A stretch of DNA of 64,000 nucleotides from Planctomycetota bacterium (lineage in GTDB: Bacteria; Planctomycetota; UBA8108; SXIK01), in the NCBI GenBank assembly GCA_965223265.1, contig OZ244999.1, forward strand, positions 8,928,001 to 8,992,000. The letters run 5' to 3'. This document shows positions 26,272-63,476 of the stretch, one piece after another; within the stretch, counting starts at the first letter, position 1, and each line of letters begins with the position of its first letter. Both the position numbers and the translations under genes were made by a program. The notes below the pieces were generated by a model. It had not been told where the DNA came from. It searched no databases and was given only the letters and a program-made list of their open reading frames with translations.

Positions 26272-26295
26272 TGGTAGTGGTGTGGGGGTAAGGAA

Positions 26296-26424
26296 GATTC
26301 AGAGACGGAGGCAGATTCAGATTCAGATTCAGATTCGGAGTCAGATTCAGATTCAGATTCAGATTCAGATTCAGATTCGGAGTCAGAGACAGATTAGACA
26401 GATTCAGATTCGGAGTCGGAATCA
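26296..26424. repeat. Hexamer tract (GATTCA)n with GAGTCA/GAGACA/GATTCG variants
   Basis: 6-bp periodicity is directly visible just after the sulfotransferase stop. Confidence 0.95.
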
Positions 26425-26446
26425 ACCTCTGAGCCCAGGTACGCCC

Positions 26447-26512
26447 GCCCACGCCCACGCAAACGCAAACGCAAACGCAAACGCAAACGCAAACGCAAAC
26501 GCAAACGCAAAC
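26447..26512. repeat. Hexamer tract (GCCCAC)2(GCAAAC)9
   Basis: Perfect tandem units, counted by eye. Confidence 0.95.
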
Positions 26513-26540: not shown

Positions 26541-26641
26541 GCAGAGAAGAGCTCTGCTGCTCCGGGCGTGCGTGCGGCGGCGATTTTGTCGATCGTAACC
26601 GAAGCAGAGCCGGCCTCAAGGGTGCCCTGGCGCCGCTCGGC
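26541..26641 (+). repeat. Truncated, gene-less copy of the four-helix-bundle leader
   Basis: 26594-26628 is identical (35 nt) to 50388-50422. Similarity extends upstream to gcagagaagag. Confidence 0.9.
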
Positions 26642-48927: not shown

Positions 48928-49156
48928 TGCGCGGCCTTGGCTGCTGTGGTGGTGCCGAACGGCGAGTTGGACGCACATTCGGCGGTGTGTGACGCGAGAC
49001 AAGACTTTAACGCAGGCGTTTTGATCTTTGCCACCCTGCTCGCTTAAAATTGGCGCGAAGTGGCGGTCGACTCTACTACGGCAGTTCTCGGCTGCTCACG
49101 CAGGGGCGACGAAGAGTCGGCTTGAGCACGATCGACGAAAACTCAGTGAGAACGCG

Positions 49157-50269
49157 ATGCGCATCGTTCGGATCGAACCCATTCCCATCAACGTGCCACT
49201 GAAAAAGGGGCTGACGACGAAGACGGCGCACGGCGAGCATGTCGATTCACCGTACGTGATCGTGAGGGTGCACACAGATGAGGGGCTCGTCGGCCTTGGC
49301 GAGGCGACGCTCGCACCGCGCTGGAGCGGAGAGACGAGTTCCAGTTGTGTTGCCGCGCTTCGCGACCTGATTTCCCCAGCGCTTGTCGGCGAAGATCCAC
49401 GCGACATCACGCGGCTACGCGGGCGCATGGAGCGGGTGCTGAAGCTCAATCCATTCACCAAGGCGGCCGTCGAGATGGCGCTTTGGGATCTCCGCGGCAA
49501 GTCGTTGGACGTCCCGATTTACGAGCTCCTCGGCGGTAAGATGCACGACGAGCTACCGATCAAGATGGTGATCGGCGCTTTCGATGTGCCGAAGGCCGTT
49601 CAGCTCGCCGAGCAGTTTCTCGATTGGGGCGTCAAATGCCTCAAGGTCAAAGTCGGCGTCGATCCTGAATCTGACGTCGCTCGCGTTGAGGCGGTTCGCA
49701 GCGCAGCCGGGCCGGACGTTCCCATCGCCATCGACGCGAACTGCGGCTGGAACTTGGCAACGGCGCGGCGCACGCTCGAGTGCCTCGAAGAGTTCGACAT
49801 CTTGGTCGCCGAGCAGCCGATTCCTCCCGGCGATGTCGAGGCGTTCGCGGATCTCCGCAGCGCGACGACCATCCCCATCATGGCGGACGAGAGCGTGTTC
49901 ACGTTGACCGACGCGTGGGTGCTGACAGCGGCGCGGGCGGTCGACGTGCTTGCCGTCTACCCCGGTAAGCACGGCGGCATCGCAGCCACTCTTGAGCTGG
50001 CGCACGTGGCGTGCGGTGCCGGGATCGCTTGTGCGATCGGGAGCAACCTGGAGCTCGGTATCGGTACGGCTGCTATGCTGCACGTGGCTGCAAGCAATCC
50101 CACCATCGACAGCAAGACGTTTCCAGCCGATTTGATCGGACCGCTTTATCACGAAGCCGACATGCTCACGCAGCCGCTCGAACTCGGGCCAACCGCGGCG
50201 CACGTACCGTCCGGCCCCGGCCTTGGAGTGGAGCTCGACGAAGAGGCGTTGGCACGCTGGCGGGAGTAG
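49157..50269 (+). CDS. Mandelate racemase/muconate lactonizing enzyme family protein
   Basis: KVKVG, DANCG, EQP and MADES motifs. Confidence 0.92.
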   Translation: MRIVRIEPIPINVPLKKGLTTKTAHGEHVDSPYVIVRVHTDEGLVGLGEATLAPRWSGETSSSCVAALRDLISPALVGEDPRDITRLRGRMERVLKLNPFTKAAVEMALWDLRGKSLDVPIYELLGGKMHDELPIKMVIGAFDVPKAVQLAEQFLDWGVKCLKVKVGVDPESDVARVEAVRSAAGPDVPIAIDANCGWNLATARRTLECLEEFDILVAEQPIPPGDVEAFADLRSATTIPIMADESVFTLTDAWVLTAARAVDVLAVYPGKHGGIAATLELAHVACGAGIACAIGSNLELGIGTAAMLHVAASNPTIDSKTFPADLIGPLYHEADMLTQPLELGPTAAHVPSGPGLGVELDEEALARWRE

Positions 50270-50367
50270 GGGTTGTTGCTGACGATGCGGGTGCTGAGAG
50301 CTGGGACGGAGATCGAGACGGGGAAAGAGACAGAAGCAGAGAAGAGGTGTGCCGCCAAGGGGCGTTT

Positions 50368-50491
50368 GCGGCGGCGGTATTGTCGAGCGTAACCGAAGCA
50401 GAGCCGGCCTCAAGGGTGCCCTCGCTGCGCTCGGCGCTTCGCGCCCTTGACCCCGACTCTGCTTTGGTTGGCGGGGGTGAAACGCCGCCGC
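50368..50491 (+). promoter_or_regulatory. Foldback leader of four-helix-bundle gene 1, putative ssDNA (Frpo-like) promoter
   Basis: Nested stems 50368-76/50483-91, 50391-407/50453-69 and 50410-19/50441-50 with a 14/13-nt internal bubble. -35-like and -10-like hexamers are 16 nt apart. Confidence 0.65.
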
Positions 50492-50540
50492 GTCGGGCGT
50501 GCGGCGAGAGTTTCACTCAACCGGTTGACTGGAGTCGCTC

Positions 50541-50864
50541 ATGGGCTTTCTCGCTTTGGATCACTCTGTTGGTATCGTTCGTCAGTTGCGTCCGCTTGTC
50601 TCGCGTGTGCGTCGTCACGACTCGAAGCTTGCCGCTCAGCTGCGCGACGCGGGGTCCTCCGTGGCGCTGAATTTGGGCGAGGGCAATCGGCGCTCTGGTC
50701 GTGACCGCGGGCACCTTTGGCGTGTTGCTTCAGGCAGTGCCGAAGAGGTGCGTACGGCGCTCCGTGTTGCTGAAGCTTGGGGCTACGTCGATGCGCAGGA
50801 GACAGCTTCGGTGCTTGCGGACATCGACGAGCTGCAGGCGATGCTTTGGAAGCTGACGCGCTGA
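50541..50864 (+). CDS. Four-helix-bundle protein (23S rRNA-IVP / bAvd-like family)
   Basis: QLRDAGSSVALNLGEG...HLWRVASGSAEEV motif; GGAG RBS at 50531. Confidence 0.9.
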   Translation: MGFLALDHSVGIVRQLRPLVSRVRRHDSKLAAQLRDAGSSVALNLGEGNRRSGRDRGHLWRVASGSAEEVRTALRVAEAWGYVDAQETASVLADIDELQAMLWKLTR

Positions 50865-50880
50865 GCTTGGGGTCTTGGGC

Positions 50881-50909
50881 CCGCCGTGCTTTTTCGCGCG
50901 GCGGTTTTT
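50881..50909 (+). terminator. Intrinsic terminator
   Basis: ccgccgtgc-tttttc-gcgcggcgg followed by ttttt. Confidence 0.75.
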
Positions 50910-51091
50910 GAGGCGGGGGAGAGGCAGAGGGAGAGACGGAACCGGAGGCAGAGACAGGGGCAGAATCAGAGACGGATGACGGATAGAGATACAGAAGCAG
51001 ATGACAGAGTCAGAGACGGAGACAGACACAGATACAGATGCAGAGCCAGAGACGGATTCGGATGACGGAGACAGGGCCAGAAGTCGGAAGC
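50910..51091. repeat. Degenerate purine-rich hexamer tract (GAGACA/GAGGCA/GATACA/GAGTCA)
   Basis: Visible 6-bp periodicity between the two convergent four-helix-bundle genes. Confidence 0.85.
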
Positions 51092-51101
51092 GCCGTGACC
51101 A

Positions 51102-51127
51102 GCGCCCGCTACGAAAGTAGCGGGCGC
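51102..51127 (-). terminator. 3' hairpin of four-helix-bundle gene 2
   Basis: gcgcccgctac-gaaa-gtagcgggcgc is a perfect 11-bp stem 14 nt after the stop. No U-tract. Confidence 0.6.
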
Positions 51128-51140
51128 ATGGGCGTCTCGC

Positions 51141-51464
51141 TCAGCGCGTGAGTCCGCTGAGAAGAGCCAGGAGTCGATCGAGGGTCTGGAGAGGAACTGA
51201 GACGTCTTCGGCCCTGAGATCTCCCCAGGCCACAGTGATTCGCAGGGCGGTCTCGACCTCCCGGGCACTGCCGCGCGCAACGCGATAGAGATGAAGTCGG
51301 TCTTTCCCGGAGCGCTCGGCACCCTCCGAGAGATTGAGCGCGACGGAAGAGGCAGCCCGCCGAATCTGCCGATGGAGATCGGGATCAAGCCGACGCAGCC
51401 GCAGCAATGGAGCCCGCAAGTCGCGAATCAAAGCGAGACTGACATCGAGAGCGATGAAGCGCAT
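51141..51464 (-). CDS. Four-helix-bundle protein (23S rRNA-IVP / bAvd-like family), paralog 2
   Basis: MRFIALD...QIRRAASSVALNLSEG...RVARGSAREV; GGAGG RBS; 107 aa, 57/107 identical to paralog 1 by ungapped hand alignment. Confidence 0.9.
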   Translation of the reverse strand: MRFIALDVSLALIRDLRAPLLRLRRLDPDLHRQIRRAASSVALNLSEGAERSGKDRLHLYRVARGSAREVETALRITVAWGDLRAEDVSVPLQTLDRLLALLSGLTR

Positions 51465-51506
51465 GAGAAGCCTCCGAAACGGTGAGTCAAGAGCTCGCCG
51501 CGTCCG

Positions 51507-51597
51507 GGCGGCGGTACTCCACCCCCCAACGCGGAGCGGAGTGGGTGTCAAGGGCGCGCAGCGCCGAGCGCAGCGAGGGCACCCTTGACCACGGGTA
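51507..51597 (-). promoter_or_regulatory. Gene-proximal part of the foldback leader of gene 2, interrupted by the recombinase element
   Basis: 51547-51588 matches the reverse complement of 50410-50451 at 41/42 nt. TTGACA on the minus strand at 51546-51551. Confidence 0.75.
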
Positions 51598-51615
51598 GCC
51601 CACACTGATGTTGGT

Positions 51616-52065
51616 TTGACGACCGTAACGGTCTTCTATCCCTACCACCCCCTTGCGGGACGCTCTCTGCCGGTCGTTCGGCGGACCTCGAGAGAACCGC
51701 CCTGCTACTTGGTTCAAATCGAGAAGCGCCAGCTCTTGGTGCCGTGCTGGATGACCGAGGAGAGCGCTATGTGGGTGGAGCTGTGTAGATCGCCCCACAT
51801 CGACGTGGAGGAGCTCCTCGTCATTGCGGCGATCGTAGAGTCTCGACTCCAAGAAGCACCATCGTCCATCCTTGACTCAGAACCAACTCGAACCAAGGAG
51901 GAGGACGATGGTGTGGACGCAGCTTACTCTACCGTTCTTGCCGCCGGAAGATCAAAGCGTGCTCGCAGTGCTGAGCGCGAAGGAGCGGGAGGAAATCGCT
52001 CGGGCAGTGGCGATTCTCCTGCAGGCGATCATCGAGAACCACGGTGTGGAGGGCGAGAACGATGA
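51616..52065 (+). CDS. Y4bD/DUF5372-like recombinase-associated small protein (no clear own start)
   Basis: VTVFYPYHPLAGRSLPVV...LVPCWMT motif, recalled as typical of ORFs preceding this recombinase class. Confidence 0.6.
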   Translation: MTTVTVFYPYHPLAGRSLPVVRRTSREPPCYLVQIEKRQLLVPCWMTEESAMWVELCRSPHIDVEELLVIAAIVESRLQEAPSSILDSEPTRTKEEDDGVDAAYSTVLAAGRSKRARSAEREGAGGNRSGSGDSPAGDHREPRCGGRER

Positions 52066-52075
52066 GGATCGATAG
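51908..52075 (+). CDS. Small hypothetical protein of the recombinase element
   Basis: Strong GGAGGAGG RBS; MVWTQLTLPF... amphipathic helix; overlaps the recombinase start. Confidence 0.6.
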   Translation: MVWTQLTLPFLPPEDQSVLAVLSAKEREEIARAVAILLQAIIENHGVEGENDEDR

Positions 52076-54152
52076 CAATCATCCAGGTGGCGTCACTACC
52101 GAGCACCTCAGGCGCGCGGCAGTAGTATACATTCGTCAATCGTCGCCAACACAGGTGAAGAACAACGAAGAGAGCACGCGCCTGCAACGCGAACTGAGGC
52201 ACAAGGCGGTCGATCTTGGCTGGCGCGAGCCGATTCTCATCGAGGACGATCTCGGCGAGTCGGCTTCTGGATTCGTCGATCGCCCCGGCTTCGAGAAACT
52301 GAAGAGCTGGGTCATTGCCGGGGAAGTCGGGATTATCTTCTGTCTCGAGATTTCCCGACTGTCGAGGAATTCGGTGGACTGGGCGCGACTGATGGAGCTT
52401 TGTCAGCACTTCAATACGCTGATCGCGGACACCGAGCAGGTCTACGATCTGTCGCTCTCTAACGACAGACTGTTGATCGGCATCCGTGGCTCGATCTCAG
52501 AAGCCGAGCTTGCGACGATTCGCTTGCGATTGCGCCTAGGTCAGCAGGCGAAAGCGAAGCGAGGTGAGCTGTGGATTCAGTTACCGATCGGCTACGTCTA
52601 CGACGACACTGAGATTGTCTTCGATCCCGACGAGAGAATCCGTACCGCGATCCGCCGTGTCTTTCAGGACTTCCGTGGCTCCAGTAGTGCCCGACAGCTC
52701 GCATTGCATTACCGAGACGCGGGGATCGAGTTTCCGAGTCGGGGCTTGGGCAACAAGACGGTCAGGTGGGCGGTGCCGTCGGCCAAGTCGCTACACAACC
52801 TCCTGGTCAATCCGACCTATGCTGGAGCCTACGCTTGGGGTCGTTCAAGGACGACAAGCAAGATCGCCGATGGGAGGCTGGTCAAACAGCGTGAACGTCG
52901 GCAAGATCCTGGTGAAGCTCGGGTGATGATCCGTGACCATCACCCAGCCTACATCGATTGGTCAGAGTACGAAGCGAACTTGAAGAAGCTATCGCAGAAT
53001 CGACCGCGAAGAGGGCTCGACGGCAACCGAGGAGCCGCGCGGGAAGGCCAGGCTCTCCTGGCGGGGATGTTGCGTTGTGGTCACTGTGGCGATCAGCTGA
53101 AGGTCCGGTACCGATACGAGAAGGCCTTCTATTACTGCGACGGCACACGAAAGGGGAACTCACGCATTTGTCTCTCTGTTGGGGCATGTCGCGTTGACCC
53201 GATCGTCGCGCAGCAGTTGTGTCGAGCGCTTGACTCCTCGGGGATCGAGGCTGCGACCAGGGCGTTCGAGCAGATCGAGAAGAGCCGAGCCGACGAGTTG
53301 AACTACGCGAAGCAGCAGGTCGAGGCTGCGCAGTACGCCGCCAGTCATGCATTCGAACAGTTCGACGCGTGCGATCCGAGGAATCGCCTTGTTGCGGACA
53401 ACCTCGAGAAACGTCTCAACGACAAGCTTCAGCGGCTTGCCGAGGCAAAGGAGACACTCCACAAGCAGCAGTCGTCGAGATTGACGTTGACTGTCGCAGA
53501 GCGAAAACGTCTCGAGACTCTCGCACGGAACTTCCAGTTGGTCTGGCGATCGACGATTGATGTCAGGCTGAAGAAGACTCTGCTGCGAGCAGCGATTCAC
53601 GAGATCATGATCAAGGAGAGCGGCGAGCTCGTTGGATCCAATCGGCAAAGTCGCCGCCTGGAATTGACGATTCACTGGAAGGGCGGCGTACACTCTACCT
53701 CCGAGCTGTTGCGATTCCCCTCTCCGAAGGCATCAAGGGAAGTTTCGGTGCTCGAGCTGATCAAGCGGCTCAGCGCCGCGGCGCATAGTGACAGCGAGAT
53801 TGCCTTAGTGCTTAACAGACGAAGGCTCACGACCACACGGTGGACCAAAGACAAGGTGACCGAATTTCGCAAACACAACGGTATCAATTCAGCGCAGTCC
53901 TCCGATGATGCGTTGTCGATGAACGGCGCCAGCAAGTACCTAGGAGTTTCCTCGATAGCATTACGTACGCTTGTCGAACGAGGATTGATCAGGAAAAACC
54001 AAGTCGCCGAGTTCGCCCCCTGGCGCGTCTCTCGCCACGAGCTGGACTCCCCAGGAGTCCGGAGCCTCGTGGCGACGCTCAAGGCGACGGGTCGATTCCC
54101 GCCTAAGGAGGGCTGCGCGAAGAACCAGATGACGCTCTTCGACGACCTATGA
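52062..54152 (+). CDS. Large serine recombinase (resolvase + recombinase + zinc ribbon + coiled coil + HTH)
   Basis: VYIRQSS catalytic Ser, EISRLSRN, LVNPTYAG, HHPAYI and LRCGHCG motifs. Confidence 0.93.
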   Translation: MRIDSNHPGGVTTEHLRRAAVVYIRQSSPTQVKNNEESTRLQRELRHKAVDLGWREPILIEDDLGESASGFVDRPGFEKLKSWVIAGEVGIIFCLEISRLSRNSVDWARLMELCQHFNTLIADTEQVYDLSLSNDRLLIGIRGSISEAELATIRLRLRLGQQAKAKRGELWIQLPIGYVYDDTEIVFDPDERIRTAIRRVFQDFRGSSSARQLALHYRDAGIEFPSRGLGNKTVRWAVPSAKSLHNLLVNPTYAGAYAWGRSRTTSKIADGRLVKQRERRQDPGEARVMIRDHHPAYIDWSEYEANLKKLSQNRPRRGLDGNRGAAREGQALLAGMLRCGHCGDQLKVRYRYEKAFYYCDGTRKGNSRICLSVGACRVDPIVAQQLCRALDSSGIEAATRAFEQIEKSRADELNYAKQQVEAAQYAASHAFEQFDACDPRNRLVADNLEKRLNDKLQRLAEAKETLHKQQSSRLTLTVAERKRLETLARNFQLVWRSTIDVRLKKTLLRAAIHEIMIKESGELVGSNRQSRRLELTIHWKGGVHSTSELLRFPSPKASREVSVLELIKRLSAAAHSDSEIALVLNRRRLTTTRWTKDKVTEFRKHNGINSAQSSDDALSMNGASKYLGVSSIALRTLVERGLIRKNQVAEFAPWRVSRHELDSPGVRSLVATLKATGRFPPKEGCAKNQMTLFDDL

Positions 54153-54249
54153 AGGTAAATCGACCGGGTTGTATCAAAGATTCGTCAGATTACGTCGGCT
54201 TACACCGAAAGGACTTACGACAGCGGAAGGTTGGAGGTGCATTGTGTGC

Positions 54250-54297
54250 TCGACTTCACAGTTCCGAGCACCGCGTAAGCTCGACAAGGCCGCCGCC
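54250..54297 (-). promoter_or_regulatory. Displaced distal arm of the gene-2 leader
   Basis: The reverse complement ggcggcggccttgtcgagcttacgcgg matches ggcggcggtattgtcgagcgtaacc at 50370 and can pair with 51507-51537. Confidence 0.7.
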
Positions 54298-54322
54298 GTG
54301 CGGTGACCCCAACCCACACGGA

Positions 54323-54569
54323 CTCCCACACGGACTCCCACACGGACTCCCACACCCACGGGAACGGCCGACGCGCACGCCGACAAGGCCGGACGGCACA
54401 CGGCGTGTGCCTGCCACGTTGAAGAGGCGCGCACCCCCTCCCACACGGACTCCCACACGGACTCCCACACCCACGGGAACGGCCGACGCGCACGCCGACA
54501 AGGCCGGACGGCACACGGCGTGTGCCTGCCACGTTGAAGAGGCGCGCACCCCCTCCCACACGGACTCCC
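54323..54569. repeat. 115-bp perfect tandem duplication containing 12-mer (CCCACACGGACT) subrepeats
   Basis: GGGAACGGCCG occurs at 54360 and 54475. Identity at offset 115 runs from 54323 to 54569. Confidence 0.92.
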
Positions 54570-54577
54570 CCTCCCAC

Positions 54578-54655
54578 GCCCACGCCCACGCCCACGCAAA
54601 CGCCCACGCAAACGCCCACGCCCACGCCCACGCAAACGCAAACGCAAACGCAAAC
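54578..54655. repeat. 13-unit mixed GCCCAC/GCAAAC hexamer tract
   Basis: Units counted by eye; same two units as at 26447-26512. Confidence 0.95.
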
Positions 54656-54671
54656 GCGCGCGAGCAATCTC

Positions 54672-55742
54672 CTACAGATCGCGGAAACGAAAGCTGCTTT
54701 CGATCTTGGCGGCGTCCGTTCTGCCATCGACCTCAACGTACGGATAGATCAGGAAATTCACTGGCCCGCCGCTCTGCGGTGGATCGAGAATCAGATCGCG
54801 TCCGCGCGAGAACGCGACGCGGTTTTCGCAGATGGCACCGAAGAAGTATTCTTTCCTCGTCGGGTCCTTGTCGGCCTCCGAAGCGTCCACCGGACGCCAG
54901 CGGCCGGCGTCGTCTTGGTACCAGGCCCAGCAGTGATAGCCGCCGACGGATCCTTCGCCGCGGCGTTCTGGAAGCGGAAATCCGATCTCAAAGACGGCGG
55001 GAATCTCCTTCGCGCGCGACATGGCGATGAAGAGAGTGTGAAAATCGGAACAGTTTCCCTTACCACTCTCGCAGACGTACTCCAGATTGCCGCGTCCCCA
55101 ACCCACGCCAGATTTGTCGTAGTCGACGTCGGCGAGAACTTGATCGTAGATCGCTTTCGCTTTTCCTTCGACGTCGGAGTGTCCGTGGGTGGCTCGTGCG
55201 GCTCGGAGTCTTGCCGCATCGCTGAGCGGCGCGAGGCGGTCTCCGGACAAAAGTCGCCTTCGACGTGGCAGACCGGGGAGGTTTGCGAGCGCGGCGACTT
55301 CGTGGCGGTCGACGTCCATCGTCACGGAGATCGGGATCTCGTCGGGTAGCGGCGCATTGAACTCGAGGTAAGCAAGACGGTTGCCGTAGACCTTCTCCTC
55401 GCCAAATTCAGGCTTCGCCGGAGCGTTCACCTCGACGCGCTGCACGGTCTGCGCGCCGTCGTCGGTCGGGAGCGGTAGCCAGATACGCACCTGATTGGCG
55501 TCTTTCGCGATGCCGGATATGGTCGTGCTGTATTCGAAGCGAAACAGTCGCCGACCCGAGAGGTCCGTTTGTTCTTGGGGCTCGCGACACGCGCAGAGCG
55601 GCAACCCGAAGACCAGAATGCACGCAAGACGGAGGAGCCGCGTGCGACAGGCCTGTCGACAAGCGCGCTGGGAGTTGTCGCAAGCGTTCAATCGATGCAA
55701 GCCACGATCGTGACGAATGGAAGAGTTCATAAACGAAAACAA
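54672..55742 (-). CDS. Transglutaminase-like domain protein
   Basis: Triad motifs GNCSDFH, YHCWAW and VDAS. Start is uncertain. Confidence 0.88.
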   Translation of the reverse strand: MFSFMNSSIRHDRGLHRLNACDNSQRACRQACRTRLLRLACILVFGLPLCACREPQEQTDLSGRRLFRFEYSTTISGIAKDANQVRIWLPLPTDDGAQTVQRVEVNAPAKPEFGEEKVYGNRLAYLEFNAPLPDEIPISVTMDVDRHEVAALANLPGLPRRRRLLSGDRLAPLSDAARLRAARATHGHSDVEGKAKAIYDQVLADVDYDKSGVGWGRGNLEYVCESGKGNCSDFHTLFIAMSRAKEIPAVFEIGFPLPERRGEGSVGGYHCWAWYQDDAGRWRPVDASEADKDPTRKEYFFGAICENRVAFSRGRDLILDPPQSGGPVNFLIYPYVEVDGRTDAAKIESSFRFRDL

Positions 55743-62246: not shown

Positions 62247-63291
62247 TGCGACGCTGCGACTGAGTGGTTGGCGCGGCGCGCTTCGATCGGTTCGGAAGTG
62301 TCTCCGCCTCACGGTCGCCATGGTTTTGGGCCTCTGCGCCGCCGCCTGTCCGCTCGCCGGAGTCTTCGCTGGCGAGCCTGTTGCCGTGACGAGCGATGGT
62401 CTCCTTAAGCTCGCACCTTCTTTCGCCGATGCCGGCGCTGCGATCGTCTACTCAGTGCATGACATCCCAAACCGAGTCACGCTGTTCAAACGCGACCTTG
62501 AAACAGGGGCGATGGAGCGTCTCCTGCCGAATACGGAAAACCACCAATTCGATGCAGAGCTCTCTCCCGACGGTCGTTATCTCGTCTATTCGCGGACGCT
62601 ATCGTCGCCTCAGATGCAGCTGGTCATTTACGACCGCCGCGAAAAGAAGGAGTCCGTCCACAATCCGCGCGGTGCACGCAGTACCATTCGTGGCGCAGTG
62701 GTGACGCCAGACTCCCAGCTGGTCGTCTTCAGCCAATCGGGGCCAGGCGGGCAGCAGATCGTGCGGACGAACATGAAGGCTGAGGAGCTGACGTACTTGA
62801 CGCGGTCGCCGGGGATCAACATCTCTCCGGCTGTCTCTCCGGATGGGCGCGCCGTGGCCTTCAGCTCGAGTCGTGACGGCAACCTTGAAATCTACGTCAT
62901 GAACATTGATGGATCCGAGCAGCGCCGGGTCACGCGCAGTCCGACGCTCGACATGCATCCCGCGTGGTCTCCCGACGGGCGTCGCCTTGCTTTCACCAGC
63001 AGCCGCGACGGCAACTACGAGATCTACGTTGTCACTGTCGCACGCAGCGCCGACGAGGGCGATGGCGAAGCGACCGCGAGCACAAGCGCTGGCAAGACAG
63101 CCTCGCAGCCCGCAGCTGCAGCACCCCCTCTTAAAGCGTTCAATCTCACGCAGCATCCCGAACGCGACGATTTTGCCGTCTGGCACCCCGACGGGCGTCG
63201 CGTGCTCGCGGTGTCTGAGCGGCGCGGTCGATTCGATCTTTATTTGTTCGAAGTGCCTGCGGAGGAGGTGGGAGGCGGGGTGGCGGAATAG
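62233..63291 (+). CDS. TolB-like PD40 beta-propeller protein
   Basis: Repeated SPDGR..AFSSSRDGN.EIYV. Start is uncertain. Confidence 0.85.
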   Translation: MSCCSATLRLSGWRGALRSVRKCLRLTVAMVLGLCAAACPLAGVFAGEPVAVTSDGLLKLAPSFADAGAAIVYSVHDIPNRVTLFKRDLETGAMERLLPNTENHQFDAELSPDGRYLVYSRTLSSPQMQLVIYDRREKKESVHNPRGARSTIRGAVVTPDSQLVVFSQSGPGGQQIVRTNMKAEELTYLTRSPGINISPAVSPDGRAVAFSSSRDGNLEIYVMNIDGSEQRRVTRSPTLDMHPAWSPDGRRLAFTSSRDGNYEIYVVTVARSADEGDGEATASTSAGKTASQPAAAAPPLKAFNLTQHPERDDFAVWHPDGRRVLAVSERRGRFDLYLFEVPAEEVGGGVAE

Positions 63292-63476
63292 AGGCGGAGG
63301 CAGAGGCAGAGGCAGAGGCGGAGACAGAGACAGAGGCAGAGGCGGAGACAGAGGCAGAGGCGGAGACAGAGACAGAGGCAGAGGCGGAGACAGAGGCAGA
63401 GGCAGAGGCGGAGACAGAGGCAGAGGCAGAGGCAGAGGCGGAGACAGAGACAGAGGCAGAGGCAGAGGCGGAGACA
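63291..63476. repeat. 31-unit hexamer tract of GAGGCA/GAGGCG/GAGACA
   Basis: 186 bp in exact 6-bp register, starting at the last base of the upstream stop codon. Confidence 0.95.

Follow-up and report, generated by a model that had tools for sequence, protein, structure and literature searches.

Introduction

Small proteins of the PF05635/TIGR02436 family are widespread, occurring in intervening sequences (IVS) of rRNA genes, in diversity-generating retroelements (DGRs), in cas loci and as stand-alone genes, and to our knowledge no function has been assigned to them outside DGRs. PMC4990558 describes 23S rRNA IVS that bear an open reading frame (ORF) as holding PF05635 genes, being selfish and being excised by RNase III. 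A resemblance of PF05635 to the DGR protein Avd is reported in PMC10053308, and PMC3936711 reports eighteen stand-alone TIGR02436 genes in cas loci, wedged between other genes. Here we analyse a locus with two such genes, IVP-A and IVP-B, in a 64,000-nt stretch of DNA from a Planctomycetota bacterium (UBA8108; SXIK01; assembly GCA_965223265.1, contig OZ244999.1; genome G000). This stretch, referred to as the window, comprises bases 8,928,001-8,992,000 of a single 9.18-Mb contig. Positions given without a prefix are those of the window and positions preceded by G000 are those of the genome. An initial annotation had proposed that the two genes belong to self-contained, dispersing cassettes of foldback leader, four-helix-bundle gene, 3' hairpin and hexamer tracts, with no transposase, reverse transcriptase (RT) or rRNA context. 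We found that the locus has two members, A and B, and a real, strongly non-random architecture.

Two paralogous cassettes lie tail to tail

The annotated tail-to-tail pair of 107-aa paralogs was confirmed. IVP-A (50541-50864, plus strand) and IVP-B (51141-51464, minus strand) share 57 of 107 residues (E 4e-27). Both exceeded the curated cut-offs of PF05635 (23S_rRNA_IVP; 55.3 and 50.5 bits, cut-off 33.8) and TIGR02436 (four helix bundle protein; 57.7 and 52.2 bits, cut-off 24). An AlphaFold (AF2) model of IVP-A, made from an 8-sequence alignment, had four helices and a predicted local distance difference test score (pLDDT) of 96.6. Foldseek searches with this model gave 2RLD and 2GSC as the best solved structures (E ~1e-4, template-modelling (TM) score 0.8-0.9), and 2GSC was also found by sequence (E 7.4e-6). 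The next matches were DGR Avd chains in an RNA-protein complex (8UB7_E and 4DWL_D, TM 0.83-0.87). In the protein alignment (A2), R35, S40, N44 and E47 were invariant, and their spacing, R-x4-S-x3-N-x2-E, is one residue off the consensus GxxRxxxSxxxNxxE quoted in PMC3936711. On these profiles and the model, both ORFs are PF05635/TIGR02436 proteins with a predicted up-down four-helix bundle like that of 2RLD and 2GSC. A PADLOC scan of both proteins returned no defence-system match, and tblastn with IVP-A against plasmids and phages gave no match at E 1e-5.

Both genes follow a leader with a common 42-nt core, as annotated. The core lies at 50410-50451 on the plus strand (no mismatches) and at 51547-51588 on the minus strand (one mismatch, 41/42), and no copy was expected from 100 shuffles. 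The inverted repeat around it spans 67 nt at 85% identity. The cassette A leader (50365-50496, plus strand) forms three helices with the conserved core at the apex. Its fold of -70.2 kcal/mol (z -4.29) was reached by none of 200 shuffles, and it scored 139.7 bits with R1, a covariance model of the leader. The cassette B leader is divided by an inserted element. Its proximal part, with the 3' arm and apex (51503-51588, minus strand), was located by the core search and R1, whilst its distal 5' arm has been displaced to 54260-54310 (minus strand), where the sequence matches that found directly past the core in uninterrupted B leaders.

Each gene also has its own 3' hairpin, in agreement with the initial annotation. 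In cassette A the hairpin (50881-50904, plus strand) is followed by a T run, the two together spanning 50881-50909, and folding and a terminator scan identified this as the only terminator-like site in the region. The GC-rich hairpin of cassette B (about 51098-51122, minus strand) has no T run and folds at -32.5 kcal/mol (z -4.20).

Leader and gene form a repeated genomic unit

Across G000 there were 38 matches to PF05635, 36 above the cut-off, and 39 copies of the core when up to seven mismatches were allowed. An IVP gene lay 3' of 36 of the 39 cores, with the ATG 79-101 nt past the core in the 34 full-length IVP matches, and 37 of 39 R1 matches sit at cassettes. Leader, gene and 3' hairpin thus make up one repeated unit, as had been proposed. 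This cassette is about 550 nt long and present in about 38 copies, each composed of the leader, a Shine-Dalgarno site with the 107-codon gene, and a GC-rich 3' hairpin. Conservation extends from about 70 nt 5' of the core to just past the 3' hairpin, with tracts on both sides.

All 34 intact ORFs examined were exactly 321 nt long. Median dN/dS was 0.14 among 15 A copies and 0.13 among 19 B copies, with dS of 0.54-0.58. The leader core was better preserved, at about 95% identity compared with 70-74% at third codon positions. The protein is under purifying selection and the leader apex under stronger constraint.

The IVP proteins are of two types, A and B, and G000 has seven convergent A/B pairs. 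Six of the seven pair units align through the whole A-tract-B structure, their outer flanks being unrelated, and on the A-cassette side they are 90-98% identical in nucleotide sequence to the window's copy. In a quick IQ-TREE run, the A genes of six pair units formed a single clade (support 98), and the B genes of six pair units fell into one clade with three single B copies (support 99). In several lineages the IVP copies grouped by genome.

Judged by GC skew, replication starts near 7.95 Mb and ends near 3.52 Mb. All 16 A genes were on the leading strand and 16 of 20 B genes on the lagging strand. The initial annotation had cassettes accumulating between convergent genes. Using a crude GC3-based ORF caller, on which all our ORF orientation counts for cassette loci and tracts depend, we found this at 15 of 30 loci, with 11 loci in tandem and four divergent arrangements. 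By tally, 26 of 37 cassettes were co-oriented with the ORF upstream. Most cassettes thus follow the orientation of their upstream gene, an arrangement that yields tail-to-tail pairs between convergent genes.

The cassette may have dispersed, as the initial annotation also claimed, which would agree with copies at 30 unrelated loci, about 15 partial or decayed copies in G000 and the clustering of copies by genome. The description of the unit as self-contained fared less well: no sigma-70-like site was found in 50200-51700 or 54150-54720, and the cassette is not clearly independent of its surroundings.

Several atypical copies were seen. At G000 8664757-8664953, an A cassette has an internal deletion, so that its leader, up to and including the core, runs straight into the final ~25 nt of the ORF and then the 3' hairpin; with the usual flanking tracts retained, this copy is a miniature derivative. 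The solo 5' part of an A-type leader at 26541-26641 of the window stops inside the core after TCAAGGGTGCCCT. Immediately before it lie two tracts, one of purines (26295-26417) and one rich in C (26457-26512), and it resembles a decayed cassette. Leaderless IVP-like genes or fragments were present at G000 5176226-5176601 and G000 385622-386059, with PF05635 scores of 53.1 bits for one and 22.4 bits for the other.

Covariation supports the leader fold

We aligned 26 leaders, comprising ten A and nine B leaders, five from genome G007 and two from genome G021. RNAalifold assigned 32 pairs, 15 of them with compensatory double changes. Paired cells reached 97.3%, compared with 85.6% after shuffling (0/500 shuffles reached the observed value) and about 40% with partners slid. 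Two U-G pairs on the sense strand were invariant, in 26/26 and 24/24 sequences. Among 27 leader copies in G000, which are kin to each other so that the counts are not independent, the sense fold was better than the antisense fold in 25, and G-U pairs numbered 101 on the sense and 13 on the antisense strand. The A and B leaders lie on opposite replication strands with the same sense-specific fold, which fits RNA better than the folding of one template strand.

The leader is about 130 nt long. It is built from an outer helix, a middle helix that covaries and, at the apex, a 7-bp stem, a nearly invariant 17-nt bulge and a small variable hairpin. We read 26 distinct cores from several organisms. 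The 7-bp apex stem was fully paired in 22 of them, with the variants GGG/CCC, GAG/CTC, GGA/TCC and GTG/CAC. In 14 cores the 17-nt 5' bulge was the same; the remaining 12 each had a single base difference, a G-to-T change common to seven of them. Both arms and loop of the small apex hairpin were variable.

No Rfam family matched window positions 49500-55500 (E up to 1) or any of 12 IVP loci (E up to 0.1). On 12 metagenome loci the only match was a tRNA, apart from a sub-threshold Plastid-ycf2 match that covers part of this tRNA on the other strand. Given the covariation support and the absence of an Rfam family, the leader is a candidate new structured element. Mimicry of rRNA by the leader was considered and rejected, the sequence common to the leader and the 23S gene or rRNA operon region amounting to 7-11-mers and two imperfect matches of 13-15 nt (E 0.45-7.9).

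Cassettes sit inside hexamer-repeat islands

The cassettes sit inside T-poor hexamer islands at the 3' ends of host genes. At the window locus, an AGAGAC-like central tract (50910-51091; repeat families D1 and D2) separates cassettes A and B; Tandem Repeats Finder (TRF) recognised 50920-51053 as 22 copies of period 6 with 69% matches. The initial annotation had reported 6-bp tracts on both sides. TRF confirmed the central tract and another at 54573-54657, whereas 50300-50346 (plus strand) contains degenerate copies only. The latter, made of partial copies of repeat families D1 and D3, is a remnant of the purine-rich hexamer/12-mer tract typical before A-type cassettes, namely of a long (GAGACAGAAGCA)n tract, of which five sister units have 12-27 copies at this place. 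On the B side, a C-rich block (54313-54657) consists of the 12-mer CCCACACGGACT, a 115-nt tandem unit (54323-54590) and the hexamers CCCACG/ACGCAA (54573-54657), as found by TRF, and such a block is also present beside other B cassettes. The annotated tract at 54578-54655 belongs to the cassette B unit, from which it appears remote because the recombinase element splits the B leader.

The 115-nt tandem unit occurs in 2.3 copies in the window, in about five at G000 7449699-7450324, and beside several B cassettes. Its fold was no better than that of shuffles (z -0.6 to -0.8). Elsewhere in the window, tracts without an intact cassette lie at 26295-26512 and 63290-63476.

Merging the TRF tracts of the genome whose period is six or a multiple of it gave 413. 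A tract was within 1 kb of 31 of 36 cassettes, compared with a mean of 2.7 and a maximum of 10 of 36 in 1,000 random draws, upholding the annotated association. In the other direction, just 63 of the 413 tracts had a cassette within 1.5 kb. One kind of tract is purine-rich (GAGACA-like) and the other C-rich (CCCACG- or ACGCAA-like). In each kind T is scarce on one of the strands, and which strand this is follows the replichore. With orientation normalised, the tracts were enriched between convergent ORFs, where 52 of 86 C-type and 25 of 49 R-type tracts lay. They are a polar, genome-wide feature of gene 3' ends. Thirteen junctions from purine tract to C tract had no cassette.

In other genomes, a period-6/12 tract was found within 600 nt upstream at 22 of 41 IVP loci and downstream at 15 of 41. 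A 400-kb sample of G001, which has no IVP, contained few period-6/12 repeats. T-free 72-mers numbered 5,883 in G003 and 3,149 in G012, both without IVP matches and with as many as IVP-rich genomes. The genome-level link between tracts and IVP genes is therefore unclean, and T-free 72-mers are a noisy measure of it.

The foldback has a wider distribution than the IVP genes it accompanies

A search for the core with up to three mismatches gave 0/40 in relatives, and among 401 genomes of the phylum the core occurred only in G000 and once in G346. The R1 model, run over 59 genomes of the class, had matches in four: G000 (38-39), G007 (13), G021 (3) and G042 (1). The initial annotation had suggested searching relatives with such a model, and R1 leaders adjoined IVP genes in two other genera (8/9 testable in G007, 3/3 in G021). 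In G021 all three matches were just 5' of its three IVP matches, and one of them had not been used in model training. The nine testable matches of G007, a metagenome-assembled genome (MAG) labelled Planctomycetota, comprised seven before an intact IVP gene, one before a degraded one and one with none; the rest touch contig ends. The lone G042 match had no IVP gene downstream.

More distant IVP relatives came mostly from MAGs labelled Myxococcota or Deltaproteobacteria. In these other lineages 49 of 50 IVP loci had a hairpin domain upstream, taken as 80 nt or longer with 30 or more pairs, a measure that is generous in GC-rich DNA; the hairpin sequences were unrelated. Many of these hairpins end at the ATG and have the Shine-Dalgarno site inside their 3' arm. 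IVP genes were also found at contig ends in fragmented assemblies of relatives.

An exact search with the conserved 5' half of the core retrieved 31 metagenome contigs and, in viral contigs, none. Two of the 28 contigs long enough to tell had an IVP gene downstream, L205 and L208 (in L208 with PF05635 at E 6e-20), with a hexamer tract upstream in both. The others keep an extended foldback in which the outer helix, internal loop and apex are conserved. These foldbacks scored 46-92 bits with R1 in the sense orientation, far over antisense, and some preceded a response regulator, a DUF6438 protein or unfamiliar ORFs. The enrichment of the leader 5' of IVP genes thus stood in G000, G007 and G021 and did not extend beyond this lineage, since 26 of the 28 testable metagenome contigs had no IVP gene. 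Leader and gene are tightly linked in the G000/G007/G021 lineage, but as a module the foldback also exists independently beyond it, its metagenome contexts being mostly non-IVP.

Contigs L192 and L210 share a further conserved stretch, GGGCGATGG...GGGCTCCGGAC.CCGG, past the foldback. In L183 (2390-6731, minus strand) two tandem units each consist of a foldback and then a 541- or 547-aa ORF, an arrangement also seen in L200; these ORFs matched nothing in Pfam or NCBIfam. The left boundary, about 95 nt before the foldback, is sharp and common to five contigs, as it would be in a mobile element.

A serine-recombinase element uses the B leader as its site

The cassette B leader is split at the core edge, 51588/51589, by a 2,671-bp element (51589-54259, plus strand) with a large serine recombinase gene (52044-54152) and a small ORF (51872-52075). 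The recombinase matched Resolvase (E 1.9e-19), Recombinase (1.8e-13) and Zn_ribbon_recom (9.4e-6), all above cut-offs. G000 contains six copies of the element with at least 97.7% identity, the other five at G000 2581199-2584005, 6779080-6781887, 7186253-7189226, 8597768-8600939 and 8835385-8838122. Both junctions were identical in all six, ...CCCTTGA/CCACGGG... and ...GACTTCAC/A...., the slash marking the point of joining. Five of the copies lie directly against a B-type core, the sixth copy against a truncated B cassette, and most cassettes have no such element. It is a separate element using the B leader as its site. The initial annotation described a cassette with no transposase; a gene for a recombinase is present inside the locus, as part of the separate element.

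The joint 51587->54258 was present in three of four DNA runs (contigs). It was rejected as proof of excision because G000 also has intact paralogous B leaders, which yield an identical joint.

The locus is flanked by a host gene and an ORF, both taken from the ORF list. Upstream, a gene of the mandelate racemase/muconate lactonizing enzyme family (49028-50269, plus strand; Pfam MR_MLE_C E 3e-55, MR_MLE_N E 2.4e-23) has its stop codon 66 nt 5' of the point where conservation in cassette A begins, and its matches in five related genomes are at most 36% identical. Downstream, a convergent 356-aa ORF (54672-55742, minus strand) has its stop codon 15 nt past the tract block.

Discussion

We tentatively favour, at somewhat less than even confidence, the reading that the cassettes lack a promoter, have been amplified together and are read through from genes upstream, the leader acting in cis on RNA. 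With no promoter of its own, a cassette would be expressed when transcription of the gene upstream runs on into it. The leader RNA could then act in processing or translational control; an RNase specific for double strands may take part, or the nucleic-acid-binding protein that the cassette encodes, which by analogy may bind its own leader. This role is proposed because of the analogy with the RNase III-cut IVS stems that harbour the same gene family, as described in PMC4990558, and with Avd in its RNA-protein particle. New copies might arise by duplication of tract-plus-cassette units, possibly through recombination at the tracts. Searches of G000 for RVT_1 and Y1 found no dedicated dispersal enzyme linked to the cassettes.

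Several observations weigh against this reading. Any binding of the leader by the protein is purely inferred. Of the cassettes in G000, 11/37 are not co-oriented with the ORF upstream, and the promoter scan covered one sigma-70-type consensus only. In other genomes the strand asymmetry is weaker, the sense strand being the more stable in 30 of 50. Template switching can also yield compensatory changes in quasi-palindromes. An IVP gene is downstream in just 2 of 28 testable metagenome contigs with the core. In two others (L192 and L210) the foldback lies 179 nt 5' of an IS110-family and 206 nt 5' of an ISL3 transposase gene, respectively, and by the same ORF caller the downstream gene is co-oriented in just 11 of 18 distinct metagenome loci. 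Finally, a site-specific recombinase takes the leader as a DNA target.

The metagenome contexts fit an independent DNA repeat equally well. In this main alternative, the foldback would be a DNA repeat of the MITE/REP type (miniature inverted-repeat transposable element/repetitive extragenic palindrome) or a recombination site, moved or copied by a trans-acting recombinase or by replication-fork events, with IVP as cargo that became linked in this lineage, and the hairpin would matter as folded DNA and not as RNA. We consider this somewhat unlikely. The varied contexts of the core in the 31 metagenome contigs, its position next to IS110 and ISL3 transposase genes and the insertion of the serine-recombinase element at one fixed core-edge position in 6/6 copies all favour it. 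So do the solo leader broken inside its apex (26541-26641), the internally deleted, miniature-like cassette and the strong replication-strand bias of cassettes and tracts. However, only 2-3 of 39 copies in G000 are gene-less, which differs from REP/MITE families, and the single Y1 transposase match is marginal and has no cassette near it. The spacing to the ATG is fixed, A and B share the same strand-specific wobble pairs on opposite replication strands, and the 17-nt bulge, near-invariant across organisms, resembles a binding site more than a terminal inverted repeat.

The cassettes could instead be an old, immobile paralogous gene family with a host function and a conserved promoter or 5' untranslated region, the tracts and hairpins being incidental. 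The high dS combined with strong purifying selection suggests that most copies are old and individually maintained, 350 of the 413 tracts have no cassette, and the RVT_1 and Y1 searches linked no mobility enzyme to the cassettes. We nevertheless regard this explanation as unlikely. The copies occupy 30 unrelated loci with sharp boundaries inside tracts, pair units of 90-98% nucleotide identity have unrelated flanks, and about 15 fragments have decayed. The grouping of copies by genome in several lineages, the IVP genes at contig ends in the fragmented assemblies of relatives and the failure of the sigma-70 scan to find a promoter-like site in the locus also speak against it.

A more elaborate proposal is that the cassettes are a transposase-less selfish class, the free-living form of ORF-bearing IVS. 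A pentamer of the four-helix-bundle protein and its own leader RNA would form a particle that secures read-through expression and promotes copying into hexamer islands, and the foldback would be reused by IS110, ISL3 and the 541-aa ORF family as a portable 5' control element. We judge this combination to be distinctly unlikely.

The tract islands might also be bidirectional Rho-dependent terminator zones, in which case the cassettes would not be selfish but would serve the host in 3'-end formation at convergent genes, for example in RNA processing or protection. Rho utilization (rut) sites are C-rich. A transcript arriving from either side of an island meets a far tract that is C-rich and G-poor (CCCACG one way, UGUCUC the other), the cassettes are placed between a stop codon and such tracts, and many tracts lie between convergent ORFs (52/86 C-type, 25/49 R-type). 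Yet this function is deduced from composition only, and G003 and G012 have many T-free runs and no IVP genes, from which it follows that tracts do not need cassettes. We think such a role very unlikely.

That the cassettes are part of a retroelement, with an Avd-like accessory protein, a template RNA and an RT encoded elsewhere, is highly improbable: the fold is close to that of DGR Avd in its ribonucleoprotein and the genome encodes four identical RVT_1 copies, but these are far off, no template/variable repeat pair was seen (no search was made for one) and the PADLOC scan of both proteins was matchless.

G000 provides about 38 natural replicates of one architecture, made up of structured leader, gene, 3' hairpin and polar tracts. 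The candidate structured element also comes with a partner that can be tested. Should the protein bind or process its own leader, this would be the first stand-alone mechanism for the family and would explain the presence of the same gene inside RNase III-processed rRNA stems. The tract islands and the leader-specific recombinase element also bear on the organisation of gene 3' ends in this lineage.

Comparison with known systems

The inserted element is similar to XisF- and Ccr-type large serine recombinase elements in its domains and in its site-specific insertion, with the same junctions in 6/6 copies. Compared with XisF and Ccr, it falls below the curated cut-offs, is only 2,671 bp long and has the IVP-B leader as its target.

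Palindromes of the MITE/REP type (Correia, ERIC, REP/BIME) are dispersed GC-rich foldbacks at gene ends that are often co-transcribed and serve as insertion sequence (IS) targets, and some are cut by RNases. Unlike these, the foldback described here accompanies a protein gene in 36 of 39 cases and its bulge sequence is conserved across organisms. Gene-less copies were 3 of the 39 cores in G000 and 26 of the 28 testable metagenome contigs. A search of G000 for a RAYT-like partner gave one marginal Y1_Tnp match (27.3 bits, at 4,206,881), with no core or cassette fragment near it.

Integron gene cassettes consist of a promoter-less ORF and a strand-specific, imperfect attC hairpin with a variable terminal structure. 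In the IVP cassettes, by contrast, the hairpin is 5' of the ORF at a fixed spacing, and attC end motifs were not evident by reading. They are also dispersed singly or in pairs, whereas integron cassettes form arrays beside an integrase (no integrase search was made in G000).

The TIGR02436 genes of cas loci are likewise small and stand-alone, and the available part of PMC3936711 describes no leader, 3' hairpin or tracts with them. More generally, our literature search, which did not extend to supplementary motif catalogues, found no conserved leader, 3' hairpin or hexamer tracts described with stand-alone IVP genes.

Avd of DGRs is a four-helix bundle like IVP (TM 0.83-0.87) and acts bound to structured RNA. 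The IVP genes differ in being multi-copy and stand-alone, in having about 10% identity to Avd chains and in having no adjacent RT. In line with the initial annotation, no RT was nearby: the four RVT_1 matches of G000 are at 1.90, 3.42, 3.52 and 5.91 Mb, and the cassette nearest to any of them is about 147 kb away. These RVT_1 ORFs of about 450 aa (G000 1895554, 3424405, 3516453 and 5913461) have near-identical scores and probably represent one mobile retroelement family, unlinked to the cassettes.

The annotated absence of an rRNA context was also verified. The single 23S gene (G000 2,007,925-2,010,917; 2,993 nt for 2,925 model positions) has neither a cassette nor an insert of IVS size, and the nearest IVP match is about 32 kb from it. 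The 'S23p' IVS of Leptospira and Coxiella nonetheless share with the cassettes a PF05635-family gene, a long stem with an ORF and the lack of a known mobility enzyme, according to PMC4990558. The IVS stem encloses its ORF, whereas the cassette foldback pairs within itself, 5' of the ORF; the cassettes also have a separate 3' hairpin and lie in about 38 copies in intergenic regions of mRNA genes. The cassette may be a free-living relative of the rRNA intervening sequences.

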